From: a virus
Lineage: Duplodnaviria; Heunggongvirae; Uroviricota; Caudoviricetes
Reading direction: 5' to 3' (one strand)
Virus record (IMG/VR): IMGVR_UViG_2703718872_000032
DNA: 25,173 nt
The first letter of the stretch is position 1. Each line of letters begins with the position of its first letter. The translations under genes were made by a program, and so were the position numbers. Below the pieces are notes generated by a model. It was not told where the DNA came from, did no database searches, and worked only from the letters and a program-made list of their open reading frames with translations. Shown one piece after another: positions 5,964 to 22,950 of the stretch.

Positions 5964-6021
5964 AAAAACGGCGGTAGAGCAGTCACGGAGTAAAACTGAT
6001 ACTGCCAAACGTCACCAGAAA
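5964..6021 (-). ncRNA. dicF: DicF small regulatory RNA (ftsZ-targeting) with 3' stem-loop and U-tract
   Basis: Minus-strand sequence tttctggtgacgtttggcagtatcagttttactccgtgactgctctaccgccgttttt matches the DicF sRNA as I recall it; located just upstream of dicB. Confidence 0.8.
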
Positions 6022-7670: not shown

Positions 7671-7901
7671 ATGCTTAAAACTGACGCTCTTTTGTATTTC
7701 GGTTCAAAAACAAAACTTGCACAAGCAGCAGGTATTCGTTTGGCTTCGCTTTATAGCTGGAAAGGGGATTTAGTTCCCGAAGGTCGCGCGATGCGTCTAC
7801 AGGAGGCATCTGGCGGGGAGCTTCAGTATGATCCCAAAGTTTATGACGAATATCGTAAGACGAAGCGGGCGGGGCGGTTGAACAATGAAAATCACTCCTG
7901 A
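7671..7901 (+). CDS. dicC: Cro-like regulator DicC (76 aa)
   Basis: MLKTDALLYFGSKTKLAQAAGIRLASLYSWKGDLVPEGRAMRLQEASGGELQYD... matches DicC as I recall it. Confidence 0.9.
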   Translation: MLKTDALLYFGSKTKLAQAAGIRLASLYSWKGDLVPEGRAMRLQEASGGELQYDPKVYDEYRKTKRAGRLNNENHS

Positions 7902-8406
7902 ACAGGCTCGTGAGGCTCTGGATGCCTGGATATGTCGACCAGGAATGACACAGGAGCAGGCGACGATATTAATCACTGAAGCATTCTGGGCTTTGAAAGA
8001 GCGCTCGAACATCGATGTTCAGCGTGTCACATATGAAGGTGGCGCGGTTGATCAGCGAGCGCTTAGCGTTAATCGAGTGAAGATATTTGAACGCTGGAAG
8101 GCTATCGACACCAGGGATAAGCGTGAAAAGTTCACAGCGCTAGTGCCTGCAATTATGGAGGCTATCCGGATTAGTGATTTCAGGTTGTATCGTGAAATTA
8201 GTGACGGAAAGAGCATTACGTACATGATCGCTGGGTTAAATAAAGAATATGGCGATGTGGTGGAGTCCGGACTGCTTTTTGCAGATCCTGCCGTTGTAGA
8301 TCGTGAAACTGACGAACTTATAGAAAAAGCAATTGCTTTCAAGCTTGCGTATCGACAGCAATACCAACAAAAAGCTGGATGGAATTATGAGTCTTCTTTT
8401 TGCTGA
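7885..8406 (+). CDS. YdaT-like / CII-position regulatory protein (173 aa; full-length counterpart of K-12 ydfX?)
   Basis: Follows the cro-like gene. Motif FERWKAIDTRDKREKFTALVPAIMEAI resembles the Rac YdaT motif HRWLKGETKTQREKIQKLIPAILAIL (from memory). Confidence 0.6.
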   Translation: MKITPEQAREALDAWICRPGMTQEQATILITEAFWALKERSNIDVQRVTYEGGAVDQRALSVNRVKIFERWKAIDTRDKREKFTALVPAIMEAIRISDFRLYREISDGKSITYMIAGLNKEYGDVVESGLLFADPAVVDRETDELIEKAIAFKLAYRQQYQQKAGWNYESSFC

Positions 8407-9392: not shown

Positions 9393-9794
9393 GTGGCAAA
9401 AGTTTTTACACAAGAAGAGCGGGAAAAAATTAAAGGGCAGGTGGTGGAACTCGTGCGCCAGAGTGGTCGTGAGACGTTACGGCAACTGGAAGCTAAAACA
9501 GGTGCGACTAGATATCTGATGAGCGTTCTTGCCAGAGAGCTGGTAGCCAGTGGCGATGTATACAACTCCGGCTACGGGTTATTCCCGTCTGAACAGGCGC
9601 GTAAGGACTGGCAAAACGCCCGCAAAAAACTATCGAGGGCAAAGGTGAAGAAAACAGCTGTGGTTGATCCGGACCTTATCTGGTCGTTACCTGATGGAGA
9701 AATACGTCGCTACGACAGTCGCCTAAACATAATCTGTCGCGAGTGCCGGATGAGTGAAGTTATGCAGCGCATACTGGCATTTTATCAGGGATAA
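9393..9794 (+). CDS. Hypothetical protein (133 aa), GTG start
   Basis: ORF preceded by taagggggac. Basic protein with a C-terminal CxxC. No family recognised. Confidence 0.45.
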   Translation: MAKVFTQEEREKIKGQVVELVRQSGRETLRQLEAKTGATRYLMSVLARELVASGDVYNSGYGLFPSEQARKDWQNARKKLSRAKVKKTAVVDPDLIWSLPDGEIRRYDSRLNIICRECRMSEVMQRILAFYQG

Positions 9795-9887: not shown

Positions 9888-9917
9888 GGTTGTCCGCTTT
9901 GTGCCAGGAGCGGACGT
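9888..9917 (+). repeat. att-like site A: GGTTGTC + inverted repeat GTCCGC/GCGGAC + conserved 18-mer TGTGCCAGGAGCGGACGT
   Basis: 18-mer at 9900..9917 is identical to 12452..12469. Same GGTTGTC prefix as sites B and D. Confidence 0.5.
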
Positions 9918-10007
9918 TGCTAATGGCATGATGTATGAACCAATGGAGAACCGATCATCTATACACATATAGATCCCTAACGAAAATATTGTTTTCACTA
10001 GCCCTGT

Positions 10008-10044
10008 AATGGAAGCGTTAATTTTATATTCTAACGCTTCCATT
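10008..10044. repeat. Perfect 13-bp palindrome with 11-nt loop (aatggaagcgtta ... taacgcttccatt)
   Basis: Read directly. Lies 3' of the SDR gene but is not followed by a T-tract on either strand. Confidence 0.5.
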
Positions 10045-10096
10045 GAGCCTACCACTTTGGCAAAGCAATTCTTACACTTCAAAATAATGTGCTTTT

Positions 10097-10843
10097 TTAT
10101 TCAGCTAAATAACCGCCATCGATTGGATAAACGCCTCCGGTACAGAATGTAGAACTGTCTGACAGCAAGAACAATATGAAGTCTGCTATTTCCTGCATTT
10201 TTGCCATCCTTTTCATAGGGTGGCTATTTGCGAAACTACTTACAATATTTTCAGGGAACTCACTCATTCTTTGGGTTTGGACATAGCCCGGAGCGACTGC
10301 ATTGATTCGAATGCCTTGACATGCAAACTCTAGCGCTGCGGTTTGGGTTAAACCGATTATACCATGTTTAGCCACGGTGTAAGGTGCTAATCCAGGAATG
10401 CCAACCAGACCATTTACTGCAGATAAATTAACTATAGATCCACCAAACTTCATCATCTGGGGTATTTCATATTTTAGGCAGTGAAAAACGCCGCTCAATG
10501 AGGTAGCAATAACCTTATCCCAGTTTTCAACTGTCTGCTCTGTTATATTTTTACCATGTTCACCTGTTAAGCCTGCATTATTTACAGCATAATCAAGTCT
10601 GCCGAAATGTTTGATAACCTCATCTATCATTTGCCGTACTTGTTCGGGCTGTGACACATCACATCCGATCCCCATGGCTTGTTGTCCCTGTGAAGATAAT
10701 TGTTCCGCTTTTTGTTTAGCCTGTTCTGACGAGCGGGATACAATAACAACTTTTGCACCATGCTTATGTAATTGCTCTGCGACGGCCTCACCTATACCTG
10801 TAGTGCTTCCTGTTATAACGGCAATTTTATTCTGGAAATTCAT
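10097..10843 (-). CDS. Short-chain dehydrogenase/reductase (SDR) family oxidoreductase (248 aa)
   Basis: TGxxxGIG cofactor motif (ITGSTTGIGEA), NNAG, and catalytic YxxxK (YTVAKHG). ATG at 10843 preceded by AGGGGG. Confidence 0.85.
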   Translation of the reverse strand: MNFQNKIAVITGSTTGIGEAVAEQLHKHGAKVVIVSRSSEQAKQKAEQLSSQGQQAMGIGCDVSQPEQVRQMIDEVIKHFGRLDYAVNNAGLTGEHGKNITEQTVENWDKVIATSLSGVFHCLKYEIPQMMKFGGSIVNLSAVNGLVGIPGLAPYTVAKHGIIGLTQTAALEFACQGIRINAVAPGYVQTQRMSEFPENIVSSFANSHPMKRMAKMQEIADFILFLLSDSSTFCTGGVYPIDGGYLAE

Positions 10844-10914
10844 AACCACCCCCTATGAAGTAGAATTGAGTCTTTCATCTGGGATAGTATACAAACCATC
10901 TGTGACAGTTTTTG

Positions 10915-11604
10915 TCAGTACTCTTTCCCCTCGCAGATCCCTTCTTTTATTCTCCATTTTTTCAATAAAATTGTCCTGCTTTCACTATAGTTGGAGTCAA
11001 GTTGCACAATATCTTCAATTTTGTCAGTTCTAAAATGACGAAAATCATTTCTCATCTCGCACCATGCAACCAAAAGCCAGCACGATTCCATGTATACCAA
11101 TCCGATGGGCCATATGACTCGTGAAGTGTAAGAATCTTTTTTATCACAATAATTTATTTTGATTTTCTTTCTTTTTTTTATAGCATTGCGAATGTCTTCA
11201 AAAAAAATCTCATTGTTTTCTGATGGACCGATCAGATAGGATTGACTCTCAATAAGATTTTTCAATTCACTGGGAATGACGGCGTGTATTTTCGCAAGCG
11301 CATTCTTTGCGGTAATTTTGAAATTATAATCTGTATTGTGCGATACCCAATTTAACCCAAGTGTAATAGCATTAATTTCTTCATGAGAAAGATTTAAGGG
11401 GGGCAAATGAAAGTCAGATTTAACAATATAACCAATTCCAGCACCACCTTCAATGCATACTCCTTGATGCTGCAGCGTTTTTATATCTCTGTAAAGGGAG
11501 CGTACACTTATTCCCAATCTTTCTGAGAGGATGGATGCTGTGATCGGATATCTTTGTGCCCTTAATATTTGTAGTAACTCGAGAAGTCTTTCTGTTCTAG
11601 TCAT
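10915..11604 (-). CDS. HTH + WYL-domain transcriptional regulator (YafY-like), 229 aa
   Basis: N-terminal HTH (MTRTERLLELLQILRAQRYPITASILSERLGISVRSLYRDIKTL) followed by a WYL-like central region. Same strand as the SDR gene, immediately upstream of it. Confidence 0.75.
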   Translation of the reverse strand: MTRTERLLELLQILRAQRYPITASILSERLGISVRSLYRDIKTLQHQGVCIEGGAGIGYIVKSDFHLPPLNLSHEEINAITLGLNWVSHNTDYNFKITAKNALAKIHAVIPSELKNLIESQSYLIGPSENNEIFFEDIRNAIKKRKKIKINYCDKKDSYTSRVIWPIGLVYMESCWLLVAWCEMRNDFRHFRTDKIEDIVQLDSNYSESRTILLKKWRIKEGICEGKEY

Positions 11605-11822
11605 GTTGATAAATCCATTTTGAGGCGATTTCTTAAAGCATCTGTTAGATAAACATATTAGTACAAAGCAAGTGTACATGGCTAAGCTGAACTGCTACCG
11701 ATGATTAATACAGCGCTATGTTCGTAATGCGTACATAAGCGGTGATCATGAGTGTAAACATCCGCTTTTCGCTTATAAGGGACAACCATACTCAAATTTC
11801 CCACATTGCAGGAGATTTGAGT

Positions 11823-12425
11823 ATGAATACGTCACCGTGGAACAAAGACCGTATCATCGGCCAAAAAAGACCACTTCAGATATCTCATATCTGGGGGATC
11901 CGAATCCGGCTTGAACTGGAAGGTAAAACGCGCGATTTAGCTCTGTTCAATATGGCCCTGGACAGTAAGCTTCGAGGCTGTGATCTGGTCAAACTCAAAG
12001 TATCGGATGTGGCATATGGTAGTTCGGTTTCAAGCAGAGCAACGGTGTTGCAACAGAAAACCGGTAGCCCTGTGCAATTCGAGATAACCAAAGGGACAAG
12101 AGAAGCTGTTGCTGCATTGATAAAGCTTGGCAATTTGCACAGTAAAGACTTCTTGTTTCGGTCTCGGGTCGGAACTAACCAGCACATTTCAACCCGGCAA
12201 TACAACCGAATCTTTCATGGGTGGATAGAAAAACTTGGTCTCGAAGGTTCACTTTACAGCACACATTCAATGAGAAGAACAAAACCTTACCTGATCTACA
12301 AGAAAACCAAGAATCTCCGGGTGATCCAACTTCTGTTGGGTCATAAGAAACTGGAAAGCACAGTCCGTTATCTGGGCATTGAAGTCGATGATGCGTTAGA
12401 GATCTCTGAATCGATTGAAGTCTAA
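11823..12425 (+). CDS. Small tyrosine site-specific recombinase, FimB/FimE-like (catalytic domain only, 200 aa)
   Basis: ATG at 11823 preceded by AGGAGA. Alignable by eye to FimE: RDLALFNMALDSKLRGCDL vs ARDYCLILLAYRHGMRISEL; STHSMRRT vs THPHMLRH; LLLGHKKLESTVRYL vs DYLGHRNIRHTVRYT (conserved R, H-x-x-R, H, Y). Confidence 0.8.
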   Translation: MNTSPWNKDRIIGQKRPLQISHIWGIRIRLELEGKTRDLALFNMALDSKLRGCDLVKLKVSDVAYGSSVSSRATVLQQKTGSPVQFEITKGTREAVAALIKLGNLHSKDFLFRSRVGTNQHISTRQYNRIFHGWIEKLGLEGSLYSTHSMRRTKPYLIYKKTKNLRVIQLLLGHKKLESTVRYLGIEVDDALEISESIEV

Positions 12426-12469
12426 GGTTGTCAGGGCTGCAACAGCAGCCCTGTGCCAGGAGCGGACGT
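12426..12469 (+). repeat. att-like site B: GGTTGTC + perfect hairpin GGGCTGC-AACA-GCAGCCC + 18-mer TGTGCCAGGAGCGGACGT
   Basis: Starts right after the recombinase stop codon. 18-mer identical to site A; whole site is near-duplicated (degenerate) at 13971..14014. Confidence 0.55.
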
Positions 12470-12576
12470 CTAGTTCGCTGAACCACAAAAAGTCGTTTCT
12501 AGTTATATTACTGGCTCATTAGTATCTTTATGCGATAATATTTCATACAACCAAAATTATGATGAAGGGAGTTCAA

Positions 12577-13698
12577 ATGGCAATTACGGTCTATTCTCGT
12601 ACATTCAAAAAGGAATTGGACATGGTTCAATTGTTAAACCATTACTCATCAGATAACGCACTCAATTTCAGTGATTTCAAGGAATTTGTTGCCTTTGATG
12701 CAGAGTGCCCAATTTGCAATGTAAGCGGTGCGATTGTTGTTTCAGAAGGTTATTCGAAAAGAACAAATAAGATAGTCAGCCAATCTCATTTTGCGTTTAG
12801 AACAAAAGACGGAACTGATGCACACAAAGTATTTTGCGATCATTACAGTGGTGATGATAAGCAAATAGATTCATCAAGGGATGGTTTTATAAAATTCGGC
12901 ACCTCAGGTTCTGAGATTACAAGTATAATTCGCGAGCTTGTATGTAGAGGTATTGAACATGATGAGTTCAATCAGGAAGATATTCGAAACATGCGGCAAT
13001 GGTTTACAGAATTACGCCAGTCAGGCACTTTTTCTGTTAACTATAGCCCTCACATGATCAATCTAATAAGGGCCAGCATGTATTCCCGTAAGGGAGAAAG
13101 TAAATATATTGTAGATGAAGAGAGGAAAAATAAATCTTGGTTTGATATAAACGATGAAGTGTATCGTTCGTTAAGATTCAAATATCCATCATTGATGATC
13201 GACATGACTAATGAAAATAATTCTGTTTTCTATAATCTTGTGAATAGTACCACATTTACTAAACAAGCACATCGATTAGTAGCACGAGATCGAGGTTATC
13301 AGGTTTATGATAGAAGGTTGCTTAAAGAAAAATATGAAGCAACGATAAGAGTTGCACAAAAAATAACCAGGCATCACGAATTTCTTTTTAGGAAAATCAG
13401 GGGTATATCCGCTGTTAAAAAAAACAACCCCCTTTTGGCTGTATCTGCCTTGCTTCTTTTTGTCTCGGACTGGAATGAAACAACTGCAATCAACAAATTC
13501 ATCAAATTGTGTGGTGTAGGGAAATCTAAAAATAATGATGAGGGGAATGTAATTGGCTTAAATCCCTTTATTCATTACGATGTCTGGAATGTTATTCATC
13601 AACTTAAGGATTTAATGGTTACACTTCCAGACTTCTCAAATCTTGATGAAGAATTTGACAGAGAAAAATCCAGATTAATTGAACTTTACAAGCTCTAA
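12577..13698 (+). CDS. Hypothetical protein (373 aa), AT-rich cargo gene of unknown function
   Basis: Long ORF with AAGGGAG RBS 5 nt before the ATG at 12577. Visibly lower GC than the flanking phage genes. Contains CPICN and CDH motifs. No family recognised. Confidence 0.65.
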   Translation: MAITVYSRTFKKELDMVQLLNHYSSDNALNFSDFKEFVAFDAECPICNVSGAIVVSEGYSKRTNKIVSQSHFAFRTKDGTDAHKVFCDHYSGDDKQIDSSRDGFIKFGTSGSEITSIIRELVCRGIEHDEFNQEDIRNMRQWFTELRQSGTFSVNYSPHMINLIRASMYSRKGESKYIVDEERKNKSWFDINDEVYRSLRFKYPSLMIDMTNENNSVFYNLVNSTTFTKQAHRLVARDRGYQVYDRRLLKEKYEATIRVAQKITRHHEFLFRKIRGISAVKKNNPLLAVSALLLFVSDWNETTAINKFIKLCGVGKSKNNDEGNVIGLNPFIHYDVWNVIHQLKDLMVTLPDFSNLDEEFDREKSRLIELYKL

Positions 13699-13740
13699 CA
13701 TAAACTAGCAGGCTGCGTATACAGTCTGCTAATTTTCATA

Positions 13741-13970
13741 GTAAAGACTTCATGCTTCAGTCTCGAGTTGGAGCTATCCGTCACACATCACCCAGGCAAT
13801 TCAACCGAAATTTTTCATGGGGGGTAGAGAAGTTTTGTCTCGAAGATTTGCTTTACAGCATACTAATCATTGAACCTCTGTTGAACCATAAGAAACTGGC
13901 AAGCACAATCCGTTGCTTGGGCATTGAATTCGACGATGCGTCGTATAGCTCTGACTTGAACAAAACATAA
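13741..13970 (+). pseudogene. Degenerate duplicate of the recombinase 3' end (about 230 bp, with internal deletion)
   Basis: DNA from agtaaagacttc onward parallels 12141..12425. Translation FNRNFSWGVEKFCLEDLLYS...LNHKKLASTIRCLGIEFDDA parallels YNRIFHGWIEKLGLEGSLYS...LGHKKLESTVRYLGIEVDDA but lacks the catalytic H-x-x-R block. Confidence 0.65.
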
Positions 13971-14014
13971 GGTTTTTAGGGCTGCAACAGCACCTCTGTG
14001 TCATAGGCGGAAGT
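13971..14014 (+). repeat. att-like site C (degenerate copy of site B)
   Basis: ggtttttagggctgcaacagcacctctgtgtcataggcggaagt versus site B ggttgtcagggctgcaacagcagccctgtgccaggagcggacgt. Confidence 0.45.
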
Positions 14015-14311
14015 TAACAAACATTAAAATCTCTAAATCTGTAGGGATCAGACTCCTTCTATAAAAGGATACTGTTCATATCCTTAGTTGTATATAGGTG
14101 TGTTTAGAGTATTAGGATGCTAGTTTTGAAAATTAATTTTTTAAACATATTGAATTTTTTAAGAATTGGGAATAGTGTATAGCTTTGTCATGGCGGATTT
14201 TTTCTCTTCAAGTATTTATTTGAACACTACTTCTTGCACCTGCAAGGTTACAATATCGTGTAAATTTGTTCACAAAGACATAGATTATAATTTTTACTTA
14301 AAGGAAATTCA

Positions 14312-15565
14312 ATGTCAAAAAATCTCCCGGTTTTATTAAGCTCGCCATCAACAACTAATTTTCCTGCAACAGTTAATACTGAAATAGAATTCCTTTCGCA
14401 AGCTAGAAAGTTGTTAGATTCTGGCTTCCCTGATCATGCTCTTTTAGATATATGGAATGCATCCATTCATAATCTTAGGCGGCGAATTGAGGCTTATGGT
14501 TTAGACTTATTCCTTTCCGCAATAAAGGATGATAGTGGTCGTAAAAAATATGATAAAGATGGTGAAACAATAAACGAGAGATGGTCAGGTGTAGATGATT
14601 TAGTGCTAATAAGTGGAGCCACCAAATTAGGGGTTCTGCATAAGAAAGCTGGAAAATCATTAGAAATGATCAATTGGATGAGAAACCATGCCTCTCCAGC
14701 CCATGCAAGTGATAGTAAAGTAGAGTCTGAGGATGTGTTTGCTTTGGCTCTTATGCTCCAGAAGAATTTATTCGAATCTGATATGCCAGACCCTGGACAT
14801 TCGCCATCTGGATTATTTGAACCCATAAAAAAATCTGAACTATCAATTGAGAGCATAGACTTACTTAAAGATCAAATAAGAGCATTTAAGCAAGCTGATA
14901 TAAGAATAACATTTGGATTTTTATTGGATTTAATAACTAAGGGGGAAAATCCTGCTTATGTTAATGCTAGCAAGTTGTTTGAACAAGCATGGGAAAGATC
15001 TAATGATGACCTTAAAAAAACAGCGGGGGAAAGATATCACTCATTTATGCTGGAGCCCGAATCGGATACAAGTGAGGATAAAGGAGCAAAAATAAGAATT
15101 TTAGAGACTTTAGTAAAAGTTAATGGTGTGAAATTTATACCTGATGCTGCTAGGGCAAGTTTATACAGACATGCGGTTAAACAGCTAGCTAAAGCTAAGG
15201 ATACATCTTACGGCTGGAATGATGAAGAAAGAGCAGCCAAGGCACTTATACAATTTGGACCTCATGTTCCATCTATTGCTTTTGAAGATGTATATCAAGA
15301 AATACTTACTGTTTGGGTGGGGAATTACTGGGGAAGATCTGATGCACATTTAGTACTTCAACCATTTTTAGATGTGTTAAATAGTAATCAATTGATGGCT
15401 CTCTCACGGTTGTTCGTGGAGAATGAAAGAGCAAATTCAGAACTGGTGTCATCAAGGCCCAAAAGAAGAGCAATAGAATTACTTGAGATAATAAAAAATA
15501 ATCTAACAATTCAAGCAAGCATTGATGAAATTGATAGGATTATTTCTGAAATTGATAAAATGTAA
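14312..15565 (+). CDS. Hypothetical protein (417 aa), AT-rich cargo gene of unknown function
   Basis: Long ORF with AAGGAAA RBS and an AT-rich upstream promoter region. Intrinsic terminator directly downstream. No family recognised. Confidence 0.7.
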   Translation: MSKNLPVLLSSPSTTNFPATVNTEIEFLSQARKLLDSGFPDHALLDIWNASIHNLRRRIEAYGLDLFLSAIKDDSGRKKYDKDGETINERWSGVDDLVLISGATKLGVLHKKAGKSLEMINWMRNHASPAHASDSKVESEDVFALALMLQKNLFESDMPDPGHSPSGLFEPIKKSELSIESIDLLKDQIRAFKQADIRITFGFLLDLITKGENPAYVNASKLFEQAWERSNDDLKKTAGERYHSFMLEPESDTSEDKGAKIRILETLVKVNGVKFIPDAARASLYRHAVKQLAKAKDTSYGWNDEERAAKALIQFGPHVPSIAFEDVYQEILTVWVGNYWGRSDAHLVLQPFLDVLNSNQLMALSRLFVENERANSELVSSRPKRRAIELLEIIKNNLTIQASIDEIDRIISEIDKM

Positions 15566-15577
15566 TTTATTTGCAAT

Positions 15578-15610
15578 TAAGCCATGCTTTTTAGGTGGCT
15601 TATTTTTTTT
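15578..15610 (+). terminator. Rho-independent terminator after the 417-aa gene
   Basis: Stem taagcca/tggctta with 11-nt loop, followed by an 8-T run. Confidence 0.6.
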
Positions 15611-15682
15611 GAATCTACTACTTATATTGATATTAGCAATGTAATTGCTAAAGTATTCCTAGCCCACTATTCATCTAAATAT

Positions 15683-15741
15683 GGTTGTCGAAAGGCCCGC
15701 TTCTCGCTCAAAGCGGACTAGAAGGTTAGCTTGTGTCGGAC
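15683..15741 (+). repeat. Possible degenerate att-like site(s) D
   Basis: ggttgtc + inverted repeat ccgctt/aagcgg + agcggac (15683..15718), then aaggtt...tgtgtcggac (15722..15741). These resemble the outer motifs of sites A and B but without the intact 18-mer. Confidence 0.25.
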
Positions 15742-16183
15742 TTTGCGTATTAAATGACTAGTGGTTGAGCCCCATTTCCACAGAAAAAATCAGAGAAACT
15801 ATACCCAATAGTTGTATTGAATCACTGACGAGACAGCCTCATATTCATCAGGACTGGTGTACGTCCAATACAGGAGGTTGTGGTGCTGGTTCTCAAATGT
15901 GCGCTGGCTATTACGGCTGTAATGGCGATTTATTGTCTTGCTATTGTTCTTATGGATCGCCTTTCTGACTGATTTCACATTGGCGAGGTAACGGTAGTTA
16001 AGTAGAATGGCTGCGGGTGCTTGAGGCTATCTGCCTCGGGCATGAACACCAACGGCAGATAGAGAAAAGCCCCAGTTAACATTACGCGTCCTGCAAGACG
16101 CTTAACATTAATCTGAGGCCAATTTCATGCTAGACATATGTAGGTTAGCCTCTTACGTGCCGAAAGGCAAGGAGAAGCAGGCT

Positions 16184-16339
16184 ATGAAGCAGCAAAAGGC
16201 GATGTTAATCGCCCTGATCGTCATCTGTTTAACCGTCATAGTGACGGCACTGGTAACGAGGAAAGACCTCTGCGAGGTACGAATCCGAACCGGCCAGACG
16301 GAGGTCGCTGTCTTCACAGCTTACGAACCTGAGGAGTAA
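16184..16339 (+). CDS. hokD: Hok/Gef-family type I toxin (51 aa)
   Basis: MKQQKAMLIALIVICLTVIVTALVTRKDLCEVRIRTGQTEVAVFTAYEPEE matches HokD (RelF) as I recall it. An in-frame upstream ATG at 16127 gives the 70-aa track ORF. Confidence 0.8.
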   Translation: MKQQKAMLIALIVICLTVIVTALVTRKDLCEVRIRTGQTEVAVFTAYEPEE

Positions 16340-17153: not shown

Positions 17154-18203
17154 GTGCGGGTATTACTTAGACCTGTTCTGGTGCCTGAGCTTGGGCTGGT
17201 GGTCCTTAAGCCGGGCCGTGAATCCATACAGATATTTCATAATCCTCGAGTGCTGGTGGAACCGGAACCAAAAAGCATGCGTAATCTGCCATCCGGAGTC
17301 GTTCCTGCCGTTCGCCAGCCGCTGGCGGAAGACAAAACATTGCTGCCGTTTTTTAGTAACGAACGGGTGATTCGTGCTGCTGGCGGTGTTGGCGCATTGT
17401 CTGACTGGCTATTACGTCATGTTACATCCTGCCAGTGGCCTAATGGCGATTACCATCACTCTGAAACAGTCATTCACCGTTATGGTACCGGCGCAATGGT
17501 GTTGTGTTGGCACTGCGACAACCAACTGCGTGACCAGACATCGGAATCACTGGAGCTGCTTGCTCAACAAAATCTGACAGCATGGGTGATTGACGTCATC
17601 CGTCACGCAATAAGCGGTACGCAGGAGCGGGAATTATCTTTGGCTGAATTATCCTGGTGGGCGGTCTGCAATCAGGTGGTGGATGCACTACCTGAGGCTG
17701 TATCGCGTCGTTCGCTGGGATTACCAGCGGAAAAAATCTGCTCGGTGTACCGCGAAAGCGACATCGTACCGGGAGAGCAGACCGCCACCAGCATATTGAA
17801 ACAACGCACAAAAAATCTTGCACCGTTGCCTTACGCCCACCAGCAACAAAAAACACCACAGGAAAAGACGGTGGTAAGCATCACCGTTGATCCAGAGTCT
17901 CCGGAATCTTTCATGAAGCTGCCTAAACGTCGCCGCTGGGTTAAGGAGAAATACACACGTTGGGTTAAGACACAGCCGTGTGCTTGCTGCGGTATGCCAG
18001 CCGACGATCCGCATCATCTGATTGGTCACGGGCAGGGCGGAATGGGAACAAAAGCACATGATCTCTTTGTGTTGCCTTTGTGCAGAAAGCATCACAACGA
18101 GCTGCATACGGATACAGTGGCATTTGAAGAGAAGTATGGCTCCCAACTGGAGCTGATATTTCGTTTTATCGATCGCGCGCTGGCAATTGGCGTACTGGCG
18201 TAA
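17154..18203 (+). CDS. ydfU: YdfU-family protein (DUF968-like, 349 aa), C-terminal Cys/His cluster
   Basis: GTG start at 17154 preceded by GGAGGT. C-terminus CACCGMPADDPHHLIGHG...CRKHHNELH. Length and position match ydfU upstream of Q. Confidence 0.75.
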   Translation: MRVLLRPVLVPELGLVVLKPGRESIQIFHNPRVLVEPEPKSMRNLPSGVVPAVRQPLAEDKTLLPFFSNERVIRAAGGVGALSDWLLRHVTSCQWPNGDYHHSETVIHRYGTGAMVLCWHCDNQLRDQTSESLELLAQQNLTAWVIDVIRHAISGTQERELSLAELSWWAVCNQVVDALPEAVSRRSLGLPAEKICSVYRESDIVPGEQTATSILKQRTKNLAPLPYAHQQQKTPQEKTVVSITVDPESPESFMKLPKRRRWVKEKYTRWVKTQPCACCGMPADDPHHLIGHGQGGMGTKAHDLFVLPLCRKHHNELHTDTVAFEEKYGSQLELIFRFIDRALAIGVLA

Positions 18204-19103: not shown

Positions 19104-19644
19104 CTTTAAATGGGGCAATAGAGATATTGAATCTCATCCCGGGATAAACATTGGCAGTTGAAGGTCCACGCGAACCATTTATCCAGCAAAATTCCACGCG
19201 TAATCCTGTGGTAATTTCTTCTGCATCTCGAAGATTGAGAGCTGAAACGTGAAGCTGGGCATCGATACGCCATCGGATGGGAATATAAGACCTTTGCTGC
19301 TTTTGTAGTCAAAGTTTTTGACAATTCCTGTCATTTTAGGGGACAGAAAAACTCCTTAATACTGATAACCTGGTGCACCATACACACGTTCCTGGAGAAA
19401 ACTACTTTTTTGATAGGGTTGAAGGTGGCTGGATGTCTAAAATAAACATTGCTTCATATGTTCAACTATGAGTTAATGACTGTGTCGGTTTGAAGAACAG
19501 ACGATATACGAAGTAGTTTACTAAAGCAGTTCTCATTTCAGGTGTTATTCACTTATTCCTTCTTTGAGTCTCTCCAATTAAGTACGAAGTCGTTTCTGTT
19601 ATGCAAACCATTTATGCCGAAAGGCTCAAGTTAAGGAATGTAGA

Positions 19645-19860
19645 ATGTCAAATAAAATGACTGGTTTAGTAAAATGGTTTAACGCTGATAAAGGTTTCGG
19701 CTTTATTTCTCCTGTTGATGGTAGTAAAGATGTGTTTGTGCATTTTTCTGCGATTCAGAATGATAATTATCGAACCTTATTTGAAGGTCAAAAGGTTACC
19801 TTCTCTATAGAGAGTGGTGCTAAAGGTCCTGCAGCAGCAAATGTCATCATTACTGATTAA
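19645..19860 (+). CDS. cspB: Cold-shock protein, CspA family (71 aa), CspB-like
   Basis: [38 protein letters not shown]... with RNP1/RNP2 motifs. Long upstream 5' UTR. Confidence 0.85.
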
Positions 19861-20144
19861 AATTCATCGCTCGTCTGTATACGATAACGAAGAAGGCTGA
19901 TGCCTGAGTAGAGATACGGACAGAGTAGTGAATATTGGATCTCTTTAATAAAAAGTAAGGAGGTCCAATACATGAAACAATGGCCAGCATATTTGGCAAA
20001 ATCTTAATCAGGAAAAGTATGCTAACCATTGTGGTGAAGTGCAGGTTTGCTGCATGAATAGTTTCACAGCAGAAGCTAACTGCTGGCATCGCAAAACAAA
20101 GTGCGTAAGTGGATGACTCCCACAAAAAGCACCACAATCTCAAA

Positions 20145-22168: not shown

Positions 22169-22530
22169 GGTAATATTAAATCGGAACATTTACATCGCGG
22201 AATGTAAAATTTAAATAAAAAGGACTCTTCCATGAGCCAAAATTCCTGAAATCTTAAGGGTAAGATAAAAGGTCTTAATCAGAATGACACGTTTTATTAA
22301 TAAATAAAGCTATTCTTTCATTGCTGTGTTTTTCTTTACAAAAGTAATCCTTGCTATGGGTGGTTAATCATGCGTTAATGGTGTTCTGGTTTGTTACAAA
22401 TTTATCTGAAGCAGTCATTGTTATAATTTTATTATTTGTACCTCTTGAGATTTCCTTGTTGGTTTTTCTCTCTGATATTTTTTTTCGGACCATTCTGCCC
22501 AAGGGCTAATTTCTTCAAAAGGTAATAATT

Positions 22531-22743
22531 ATGTCTAACAAAATGACTGGTTTAGTAAAATGGTTTAACCCTGAAAAAGGTTTTGGTTTCATCACGCCGA
22601 AAGATGGCAGCAAAGATGTGTTTGTCCATTTCTCAGCAATTCAGAGCAACGATTTCAAAACATTAACTGAGAATCAGGAAGTTGAATTTGGTATTGAGAA
22701 CGGACCTAAAGGTCCTGCCGCTGTTCATGTAGTGGCGCTTTGA
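22531..22743 (+). CDS. cspI: Cold-shock protein, CspA family (70 aa), CspI-like
   Basis: [70 protein letters not shown]. Confidence 0.85.
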
Positions 22744-22950
22744 GGTAGACAATATTACAAACCATATTCACTTTAGATGCCCGTGTTGTCATGGTTCCCA
22801 GTATAGAACATCATCTTTTGATGTTTCTGACATGAATCCTTTCGGGGCAAAATGTATCTTTTGTAAATCAATGATGATTACATTTGATAATATTTCACAA
22901 TACTTAAATGCTAGCCGTCTGTCGTTGGATTTAAAAAAGTGAAAATGAAG

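Follow-up and report, generated by a model that had tools for sequence, protein, structure and literature searches.

How has the 3' end of a recombinase gene, together with the site that follows it, come to lie a second time behind the neighbouring gene, and what does this duplicate reveal about the assembly of the variable region in which it is found? The question is raised by a 274-bp segment (positions 13741-14014) of the stretch of DNA analysed here, which is 25,173 nucleotides long and is referred to below as the window. The window corresponds to a Qin-like lambdoid prophage of E. coli and is 100% identical to NZ_CP075632.1. The segment resides in the variable stretch between the replication module, whose DUF977 gene ends at 9794, and hokD/rem, where the genes follow each other in the order: SDR oxidoreductase and WYL/HTH regulator (both on the minus strand), the recombinase gene (hereafter rec), the genes of a 373-aa and a 417-aa protein, and hokD. 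In the existing annotation rec is described as a 'site-specific integrase' and the 373-aa and 417-aa proteins as hypothetical. Taken alone, the segment is a pseudogene fragment, and its value is that of a fossil connector, which marks rec as one interchangeable piece of an array. With good confidence we propose that the interval 13719-14016 represents the neutrally decayed wreck of a second rec gene and of the rec-proximal site of a class termed A, and that it lies in an array of modules bounded by short sites of two classes, A and B.

The recombinase gene and the remnant of its second copy

The intact rec gene (11823-12425; like its remnant, the cargo genes behind it, their hairpins and all core sites, on the plus strand) encodes a tyrosine recombinase of 200 aa that consists of the catalytic domain only. 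The protein matches PF00589 in Pfam over residues 35-184 at 7.4e-18, and the whole catalytic set (R51, K79, H148, R151, H174 and Y183) can be read from the translation. NCBIfam models give only sub-threshold matches to Xer proteins and invertases: the best of them, the XerA/integron integrase model, scores 53.9 bits against a cut-off of 220, and the FimB/FimE-type model NF007371 reaches 24.4 bits where 222 would be required. A search of PDB sequences returned no relative of rec at E <= 0.001, and the isolated phages of INPHARED contain no close homologue, the best match being 58% identical. The family comprises at least 7,989 clusters at E <= 1e-20 (in round figures at least 8,000, defined at 90% identity and distributed over Gamma- and Betaproteobacteria), which bear generic annotation only, and at least 547 of 600 candidate loci could be confirmed across GTDB species. 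We also considered 'intK/ydfW' of E. coli K-12 as a candidate remnant of rec; tblastn reveals no homology to rec in the K-12 Qin prophage. Rfam yielded no match within 9.8-15.8 kb of the window.

The gene is framed by two hairpins. The one in its 5' UTR (11787-11825) pairs both the Shine-Dalgarno sequence (GGAG) and the ATG; it is formed by an inverted repeat (I10) of 93% complementarity, has a folding energy of -10.7 kcal/mol (z = -6.1) and is kept in all close homologues. Because the start codon and the Shine-Dalgarno sequence are locked in this conserved structure, the arrangement suggests that rec is under tight translational control. The other hairpin (CAGGGCTGC-AACA-GCAGCCCTG, 12432-12467) follows the stop codon and overlaps A1, the rec-proximal site of class A. 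We compared 93 distinct downstream flanks of rec homologues of 60-100% protein identity, drawn from many genera. A perfect stem of at least 7 bp is found after the stop codon in 67% of them, as opposed to 3% of shuffled sequences, and 40 different stem sequences are represented; thus, across these flanks the sequence of the hairpin varies and its pairing is kept.

The second copy comprises the 3' part of rec and the downstream site: 13719-14016 parallels 12120-12469 with approximately 75-80% identity and a net deletion of 54 bp. An alignment of 12120-12500 with 13720-14040 by MAFFT has a mean column identity of 80% and one gap of 54 columns. A gap-free repeat finder resolves the same similarity into two blocks, 12120-12264 with 13719-13863 (74%) and 12328-12469 with 13873-14014 (77%), between which the 63 nt at 12265-12327 face only the 9 nt at 13864-13872, a net loss of 54 bp. 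Finally, tblastn reads the second copy as residues 100-191 of rec (E = 4e-17). The similarity is not of the low-complexity type; it spans codons ~100-200 of rec and continues through the stop codon into the palindrome and the conserved motif that follow. These results confirm the original prediction, in which a duplicate of the rec 3' end and its site had been recognized behind the 373-aa gene at 13741-14014. The right end holds, the start lies about 20 bp further to the left (at ~13719), and the internal deletion, initially estimated at roughly 60 bp, amounts to 54 bp net. The gene-derived part of the remnant extends from 13719 to 13970, with the deletion between 13863 and 13873. Its left edge is right behind the stop codon, at 13698, of the 373-aa gene (12577-13698; no assigned function), and its right edge falls at 14012-14016. 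A terminator-like hairpin at 13706-13731 overlaps the start of the remnant.

The remnant differs from rec at 20, 20 and 22 sites in codon positions 1, 2 and 3, respectively (79 sites each), while the corresponding figures are 3, 1 and 4 for an intact rec allele (locus L002) and 4, 3 and 9 for a fresher remnant found in SF-468. The motif VRYL has become IRCL, with the catalytic Tyr (position 183) replaced by Cys, and the 54-bp deletion has taken out the HxxR box (HSMRRT), leaving the remnant without H148 and R151. The post-stop palindrome has a folding energy of -12.6 kcal/mol (z = -3.0) behind rec versus -4.1 kcal/mol (z = -0.14) behind the remnant. The decayed hairpin, no better than shuffled sequences, and the decayed class A site A2, from 13989, together occupy 13977-14012 (AGCACCTC-TGTGTCAT-AGGCGGAA); A2 departs from the consensus by two changes in its spacer and two in its right arm. 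The even distribution of substitutions, the Tyr to Cys replacement, the loss of the HxxR box and the degradation of both the hairpin and the A site all favour reading the remnant as a second rec that has become a pseudogene. It is a dead fragment with a neutral pattern of substitution, and A2 is presumably inactive.

Two classes of core sites and the arrays bounded by them

The sites that accompany rec belong to two classes of 24-bp cores, with the consensus GTCCGCTY-TGTGCCAN-RAGCGGAC for A and GTCCGCTY-YTCGCTCA-MAGCGGAC for B. Both have the same inverted 8-bp arms (GTCCGCTT / AAGCGGAC) and differ in the 8-bp spacer, TGTGCCAN in A and YTCGCTCA in B, of which the latter matches the reverse complement of the former at 6 of 8 positions. 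Inverted 8-bp arms around an asymmetric 8-bp spacer are the layout typical of a tyrosine-recombinase site. Three full cores are observed in the window versus 0.01 expected from shuffled sequences; they are not due to chance.

The left end of the array is the core A0 (9892-9915; GTCCGCTT-TGTGCCAG-GAGCGGAC), just past the DUF977 gene, and it is here that homology with other Qin-like prophages stops. A0 has 18 nt (TGTGCCAGGAGCGGACGT) in common with the site 3' of rec, a 16-mer of which recurs at 9900-9915, where it is preceded by GTCCGCTT. The first cargo module (9916-11759, A to B, on the minus strand) carries the genes of the SDR oxidoreductase (10097-10849) and of the WYL/HTH regulator (10915-11604), assigned according to Pfam and, for the WYL protein, also PADLOC (2.6e-61). 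It is followed by the core B1 (11760-11783; ATCCGCTT-TTCGCTTA-TAAGGGAC), which lies directly 5' of rec, and, on the other side of rec, by A1, which starts at 12444 with a non-canonical left arm (AGCAGCCC) and continues with the spacer TGTGCCAG at 12452-12459 and the right arm GAGCGGAC. The rec-proximal sites are in general non-canonical in the left arm of A and the right arm of B. Past the 373-aa gene, the remnant, A2 and the 417-aa gene (14312-15565; no assigned function), the right end of the array is reached at B3 (15695-15718; GCCCGCTT-CTCGCTCA-AAGCGGAC), where on the hokD side homology with many other prophages starts. Beyond B3, at 15719-15756, a linker-like stretch (tagaaggttagctt) and a degenerate A-like stretch can be seen. 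Throughout the window the alternation of A and B is broken only once, by the succession of A1 and A2 with no B between them, and this break is at the place of the remnant.

The association of rec with the two cores extends far beyond the window. A B core is found in each of the 28 distinct flanks upstream of close rec homologues; its spacer, its right arm (TAAGGGAC) and the 5' UTR hairpin are kept with rec, whereas its left arm and the sequence beyond are variable. On the 3' side, TGTGCCAN-RAGCGGAC comes next after the hairpin in the enterobacterial lineage, and it is right behind this sequence that close relatives diverge. Among the rec homologues of at least 80% identity, none lacks the B core on its upstream side or the hairpin with an A site on its downstream side, and homology between loci stops at the outer arms. 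Since the B core is present in all 28 upstream flanks and kept with rec, and the A site lies downstream, rec is itself a B-to-A module. The arm sequences are kept with rec homologues as distant as those of Pseudomonas and Betaproteobacteria; the spacers differ between lineages.

In most of more than 30 independent loci, which come from prophages, plasmids and chromosomes, the two classes of core alternate with each other and point in the same direction as rec (e.g. L003, L006, L007, L008, L009 and L115), and no variant with an inverted module was found among these loci. The cargo mostly occupies the A-to-B intervals, while the B-to-A connectors usually consist of a conserved linker of 15-18 nt or of the rec gene; composites of B core, linker and A core are represented by nine examples. 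Exceptions are long B-to-A intervals (4.1 kb in L008) and some successions of A and A, i.e. the placement of cargo is a tendency, not a law. Three loci (L004, L012 and L041) carry complete tandem copies of rec separated by cargo, in the intact order rec, cargo, B core, second rec. Conversely, the arrays of PBS4, of a genomic island and of a P2-like prophage have no rec nearby, and most cargo modules contain no rec fragment. We also considered an attC-like fold of the composite of B core, linker and A core, which forms an imperfect 24-bp inverted repeat. Single-strand folding prefers two separate core hairpins, and the attC model was not adopted for this reason.

The cargo itself is very diverse. 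In 33 arrays, 111 open reading frames of at least 150 aa fall into 84 clusters at 50% identity, thus almost every cargo is unique. Proteins of the defence type include OLD, NsnB, AAA_15/AAA_21 ATPases, HEPN, SIR2, HerA, HNH and peptidase U49, as well as Septu/Gabija-like ATPases and Lit-like proteins; others are related to transport, metabolism and regulation (MFS, BCCT, ArsB, SDR, LysR and GNAT). The 373-aa protein belongs to phrog_12525 (2e-147) and the 417-aa protein to phrog_27609 (7e-186), both of them PHROGs of unknown function. The former has no match in Pfam, NCBIfam and PADLOC, the latter none in Pfam and PADLOC.

Movement of the modules and the history of the remnant

The interval from the A1 spacer to B3 (12452-15719, 3,268 bp, plus strand), which comprises the 373-aa gene, the rec remnant, the dead A2 and the 417-aa gene, constitutes today a single composite A-to-B module. 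It is 99.7% identical to 4983-8248 of L154, a genomic island beside trbL in strain AZ147, and to 4479-7750 of L158, a P2-like prophage of strain ES5, in which the module is flanked by gene G (tail-fibre assembly) and gene FI (sheath), i.e. in the Z/fun locus. In all three contexts the homology runs from the first base of the A spacer to the B core, and the outer arms and flanks are unrelated. The composite block is present in 13 complete E. coli genomes (three in the Qin-like, nine in the island and one in the P2-like context), and in all 13 the 417-aa gene directly follows the 373-aa gene and the remnant. This is direct evidence that a module of 3.27 kb has moved, base-exact at two cores, between a lambda-like prophage, a P2-like prophage and an island.

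Other modules and flanks exhibit the same behaviour. For the flank with the P2 gene G (1,766 genomes) and the flank with DUF2254 (1,380 genomes), homology ends at the end of the A core (query 499-505) among the matches listed, and beyond the core these matches have other content. The SDR-WYL module recurs with 88-90% identity in Klebsiella and Rahnella plasmids/replicons, where homology extends from 9900/9901 to ~11783; in the Klebsiella locus L156 it is bounded by an A core at 5992 and, at 7860, by a B core, which is followed by a linker and an A core. In PBS4, a near-identical Qin-like prophage, the same A and B positions enclose one unrelated gene for a 340-aa protein and no rec. When the DUF977 flank and the hokD flank were joined into a synthetic junction and used as query, no empty site was detected, the smallest fillers being a QueH gene and a hypothetical gene; the locus of BL21, which had been a candidate for an empty site, carries an unrelated deletion from within DUF977 to window position 15860. 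No excised circle was found either. The lack of an empty site is consistent with a swap by double crossover, which leaves none.

An earlier stage in the history of the remnant is preserved in SF-468. There the junction between the 373-aa gene and the remnant is the same, a homologue of the 373-aa gene being joined past the A site to a different downstream cargo (DUF4365), and the remnant, 93.5% identical to rec, has no 54-bp deletion. It follows that the truncation is old, that A2 was once a working joint, and that the 54-bp deletion and the heavy decay are specific to the lineage of the window. Despite the common junction, the two remnants differ in their divergence from rec (93.5% identity versus ~77%), which calls for gene conversion in SF-468 or, alternatively, for rapid decay in the lineage of the window.

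Truncated copies of rec in other loci start at various codons (~104, 127, 157, 162, 170, 176 and 179), and a distant lineage (L112) has rec followed downstream by a 3' fragment of it. Since remnants start at so many codons, there is no fixed crossover point within rec, and varied starts across lineages are what would be expected from ordinary deletions. Aberrant cleavage by the recombinase at the left arm of a B core was also considered as the origin of the 5' junction. Such a junction does exist in L135-138, in which GTCCGCTG continues directly into rec at codon ~161; in the window, however, the arm-like GTCTGCT is itself derived from rec, and the same reading fails for L112, L143-147 and L149.

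We propose the following scenario. The ancestral order would have been A, 373-aa gene, B, a second recombinase gene (rec'), A, 417-aa gene, B; the tandem rec copies of L004, L012 and L041 are plausible representatives of such a precursor state. An ordinary deletion may then have taken out ~95-100 codons at the start of rec' together with the B core; a deletion of the B core with the 5' part of the second rec is the simplest reading of the succession of A1 and A2. The rest of rec' would have decayed by the 54-bp deletion, the change of Tyr to Cys, the breaking of the hairpin and the mutation of A2, and this decay would have fused two cargo genes into the one A-to-B module at 12452-15719. The module would subsequently have moved as a block among the Qin-like prophage, the P2-like prophage (at Z/fun) and the island, by crossovers in the spacers of A and B. 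As to the enzyme, the anatomy and the breakpoints suggest that rec may catalyse the exchange of A with A and of B with B, i.e. a natural cassette exchange, or else the excision and integration of circles at A cores. The anatomy, the alternation of the cores, the exact breakpoints and the pseudogene state are, for their part, directly observed.

The rival that survives best assumes no dedicated system at all: the cores would be short conserved boundaries, between which modules are swapped by homologous recombination or by phage-encoded recombination of the Red/RecET type. The length of the cores lends it some credit, as 24 bp is close to the lower length limit for RecA-dependent exchange, and so do the many arrays without a nearby rec. 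A similar proposal exists for the P2/P4 hotspots: according to Rousset et al. 2022, the driver of prophage hotspot turnover is unknown, and a role of homologous recombination has been suggested (PMC9122126). Yet mere boundaries would hardly be expected to display the core layout of tyrosine-recombinase sites, to fall into two alternating spacer classes co-oriented with rec, to have rec always set precisely between a B and an A core, or to combine lineage-specific spacers with arms conserved up to distant rec homologues. Moreover, DNA resembling rec occurs in 865 of the 5,426 complete E. coli genomes and might exert its action in trans. On balance we regard this explanation as unlikely.

Less probable still is the mechanism put forward in the original prediction, according to which a circle carrying the 373-aa gene and a copy of the rec 3' end integrated into a resident rec and pushed the original end downstream. 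It explains why a direct repeat of the rec 3' end and site brackets the 373-aa gene, and it predicts an intact upstream and a decayed downstream copy, as seen. However, relatives diverge in the A spacer (12452-12459), past the stop codon, and not where the repeat has its left edge; the breakpoints lie in the cores upstream (B) and downstream (A) of rec, never inside it. The remnant, moreover, accompanies the 373-aa gene even where element and chromosome are devoid of rec: together with both cargo genes it is found at 99.7% identity in the chromosomes of AZ147 and ES5, in which no rec is detectable and only a single place is matched by a query that detects rec genes in ~850 other genomes. This is an outcome that the original prediction had itself named as refuting its mechanism. 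The variability of the remnant starts is equally at odds with integration at one point, and the mechanism predicts incoming cassettes with a rec 3' end, which most of them do not have. The expected state before the insertion, with rec directly preceding the later cassette, i.e. the 417-aa gene, is absent from the 5,426 complete E. coli genomes. What stands of the prediction is that the duplicate is a relic of site-specific recombination at a former cassette boundary: the 373-aa gene has its left edge exactly in the core at 12452, and its SF-468 homologue, with the same remnant, is joined to other cargo. Integration into the 3' end of rec does not stand. The weakest alternative, that the remnant is kept for a function, either as accessory recombinase-binding sites or as a promoter/terminator region for the flanking cargo, might draw on its near-identity across three element types, on the hairpin at 13706-13731 and on the recurrence of 3' fragments with hairpin and site in several lineages, but we consider it highly improbable, as the substitutions are distributed evenly, both among codon positions and over the length of the remnant, the likeliest recombination parts (hairpin and A core) are themselves degraded, and the 99.7% identity is explained by a recent transfer of the block in its entirety and not by selection acting on the remnant.

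Returning to the array of A/B-bounded modules with a decayed second rec, it is tantalizing to consider the observations jointly as the trace of a natural two-core cassette exchange, driven by a widespread family of tyrosine recombinases of ~200 aa that consist of the catalytic domain only, and turning over accessory and anti-phage genes at hotspots; we give this wider interpretation about an even chance. If it is true, the system would serve hotspots as different as Z/fun of P2, the interval between the lambdoid replication module and hokD, sites proximal to tail-fibre genes, islands and large plasmids; identical modules would be carried between otherwise unrelated elements, and the rec gene itself would be one B-to-A module among them. 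The two 24-bp sites and the candidate enzyme of 200 aa make the question of hotspot turnover testable. Should rec prove active, it would represent a very small natural cassette-exchange system and a possible tool.

Comparison with known systems

The closest precedent in the literature concerns phage P2. [quoted passage not shown] In phage P2, fun(Z) is enclosed by an A core (15335) and a B core (17432); as far as the account in the review permits a comparison, these repeats appear to be the same sites as the A and B cores, and it is in this locus that the composite module is located in the ES5 prophage. Relative to the literature accessible to us, the recognition of rec as a B-to-A module, the two alternating spacer classes, the rec remnants as fossil connectors and the arrays in lambdoid prophages, islands and plasmids appear to be new: in that literature, with the 2004 study represented by the review, we found no description of the link to rec, of alternating arrays, or of arrays in lambdoid prophages, islands or plasmids.

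Islands at the 3' ends of tRNA and other genes also leave a direct repeat of the gene 3' end downstream of the inserted DNA; there, the repeat begins at the crossover point within the targeted gene, which the incoming element restores, whereas here the crossovers fall outside rec and the repeat is a leftover copy. With invertases of the FimB/FimE type rec has only its size in common (~200 aa, no N-terminal domain), as the cores are co-oriented and the score is under the cut-off. [quoted passage not shown]

In concept, integrons and the dif modules of Acinetobacter come nearest to the arrays. Integrons, like these arrays, place a tyrosine recombinase beside an array of diverse cassettes, many of which are promoterless and many related to defence, and in both there are arrays without a recombinase, cf. 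the CALINs (attC clusters without an integron integrase). On the other hand, IntI has ~320 aa and rec only 200, with scores far below the integron and Xer cut-offs; the joints contain no GTTRRRY; and the cores are ordinary palindromes of the double-strand type with no long attC stem. The integron integrase is, in addition, divergently oriented at the end of its array, while rec is situated within the array and co-oriented with the sites.

The A and B cores differ in sequence and geometry from the dif/pdif consensus, as represented by the E. coli dif sequence. At the level of organization, the dif modules of Acinetobacter are nevertheless a close parallel: accessory modules lie between short sites of two alternating configurations, and the same module is found in different backbones (PMC13141974, PMC9455709). 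There, as here, the mechanism of movement has been deduced mainly from comparative genomics. The pdif sites are 28 bp long (11-6-11) and are served by the host XerC and XerD, whereas the sites described here have an 8-8-8 layout, an unrelated sequence and a dedicated recombinase that is itself borne as a module. The A/B arrays are found not only in plasmids, as the Acinetobacter modules are, but also in prophages and genomic islands.

There is a likeness, too, to engineered cassette exchange with heterospecific lox or FRT sites, in which two sites with common arms and incompatible spacers flank a cassette. In the arrays described here the system would be a natural one, the incompatibility of the A and B spacers is presumed, and the breakpoints of the modules point to an exchange of the same kind.

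Recombinase expression and the right end of the array

Translation of rec, the gene for the 200-aa tyrosine recombinase, looks locked by its own leader, in which a hairpin (window 11787-11825) with a 15-bp stem pairs both the Shine-Dalgarno sequence (GGAG) and the ATG start codon. Folding of this stem yields -10.7 kcal/mol (z = -6.1), and it is kept in all close homologues of rec. The RNAs that Rfam matches in the window (5969-6020, 16015-16189, 19484-19876 and 22385-22770) are DicF, the sok antitoxin of hokD and two cspA-type thermoregulator leaders (cspB and cspI), all of known types and none of them unexpected.

At the right end of the array, 3' of the terminal B core, window 15719-15756 comprises the linker-like tagaaggttagctt (compare the linker consensus, CTTCAGCTCAGTTAGCTT), followed by a degenerate A-like stretch. 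It may be what is left of a composite site there, in which a B core and an A core were connected by a linker.

The cargo pair and rec alleles at other loci

The 373-aa (12577-13698) and 417-aa (14312-15565) proteins have no match in Pfam, NCBIfam or PADLOC. In E. coli neither is found apart from the other, and every such pair lies in a hotspot that is occupied by defence genes elsewhere; we regard their genes as a candidate anti-phage system of two genes. Strain SF-468 instead combines a homologue of the 373-aa protein with a DUF4365 protein.

An 8.4-kb "plasmid" record (NZ_CP148379.1) is a lambdoid prophage fragment in circular form that extends from cI/cro to rem. Its array includes, besides a DUF5677 gene, an allele of rec and an ATPase and HNH pair resembling Septu. 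Compared with the rec product of the window, this allele is only 66% identical over its first 132 residues and shows a short gap at 133-135; the same allele recurs in L116-L124 and L133. On four viral contigs (L135-L138, about position 7990-8001) the left arm of a core is joined directly to a rec remnant, GTCCGCTG|ACCAAGAATC, which corresponds to residues 162-200 and is 97-98% identical. This fusion, which other rec remnants do not share, could be an aberrant deletion mediated by the recombinase.

Core sites in other prophages and at other hotspots

The Qin prophage of E. coli K-12 (NC_000913.3) lacks homology to rec. Its flxA gene is bracketed by two core-like sites (at about 1646995 and about 1646004), one being GTCCGCTA-AGAGCAAG-AAGCGGAA and the other an inverted A core, GGCTGCTC-CTGGCACA-AAGCGGAC, within the ydfV ORF, and the stretch that spans flxA and relBE could represent a decayed array. 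The Qin-like prophage of BL21-Gold(DE3) (L151, 2480-2600), where the middle of DUF977 is fused to about window position 15860, was considered as an empty recombination site and rejected, because this plain deletion takes out the entire array.

Another recurrent hotspot is the position 3' of tail-fibre and tail-fibre-assembly genes, directly after which lies an A-type site, GGACTGCTA-TGTGCCAG-AAACGGAT, in SF-468 (L153, 1758-1790), with equivalents in L114 and L135; the phages concerned also encode a serine invertase of the Pin/Cin type. In phage P2 (NC_001895) an A core (15335-15358) directly follows gene G and a B core (17432-17455) precedes gene FI, so that the two bracket fun(Z), the classic lysogenic-conversion gene of this phage. 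Therefore, these sites are common to the Z/fun hotspot of P2 and the lambdoid array of the window.
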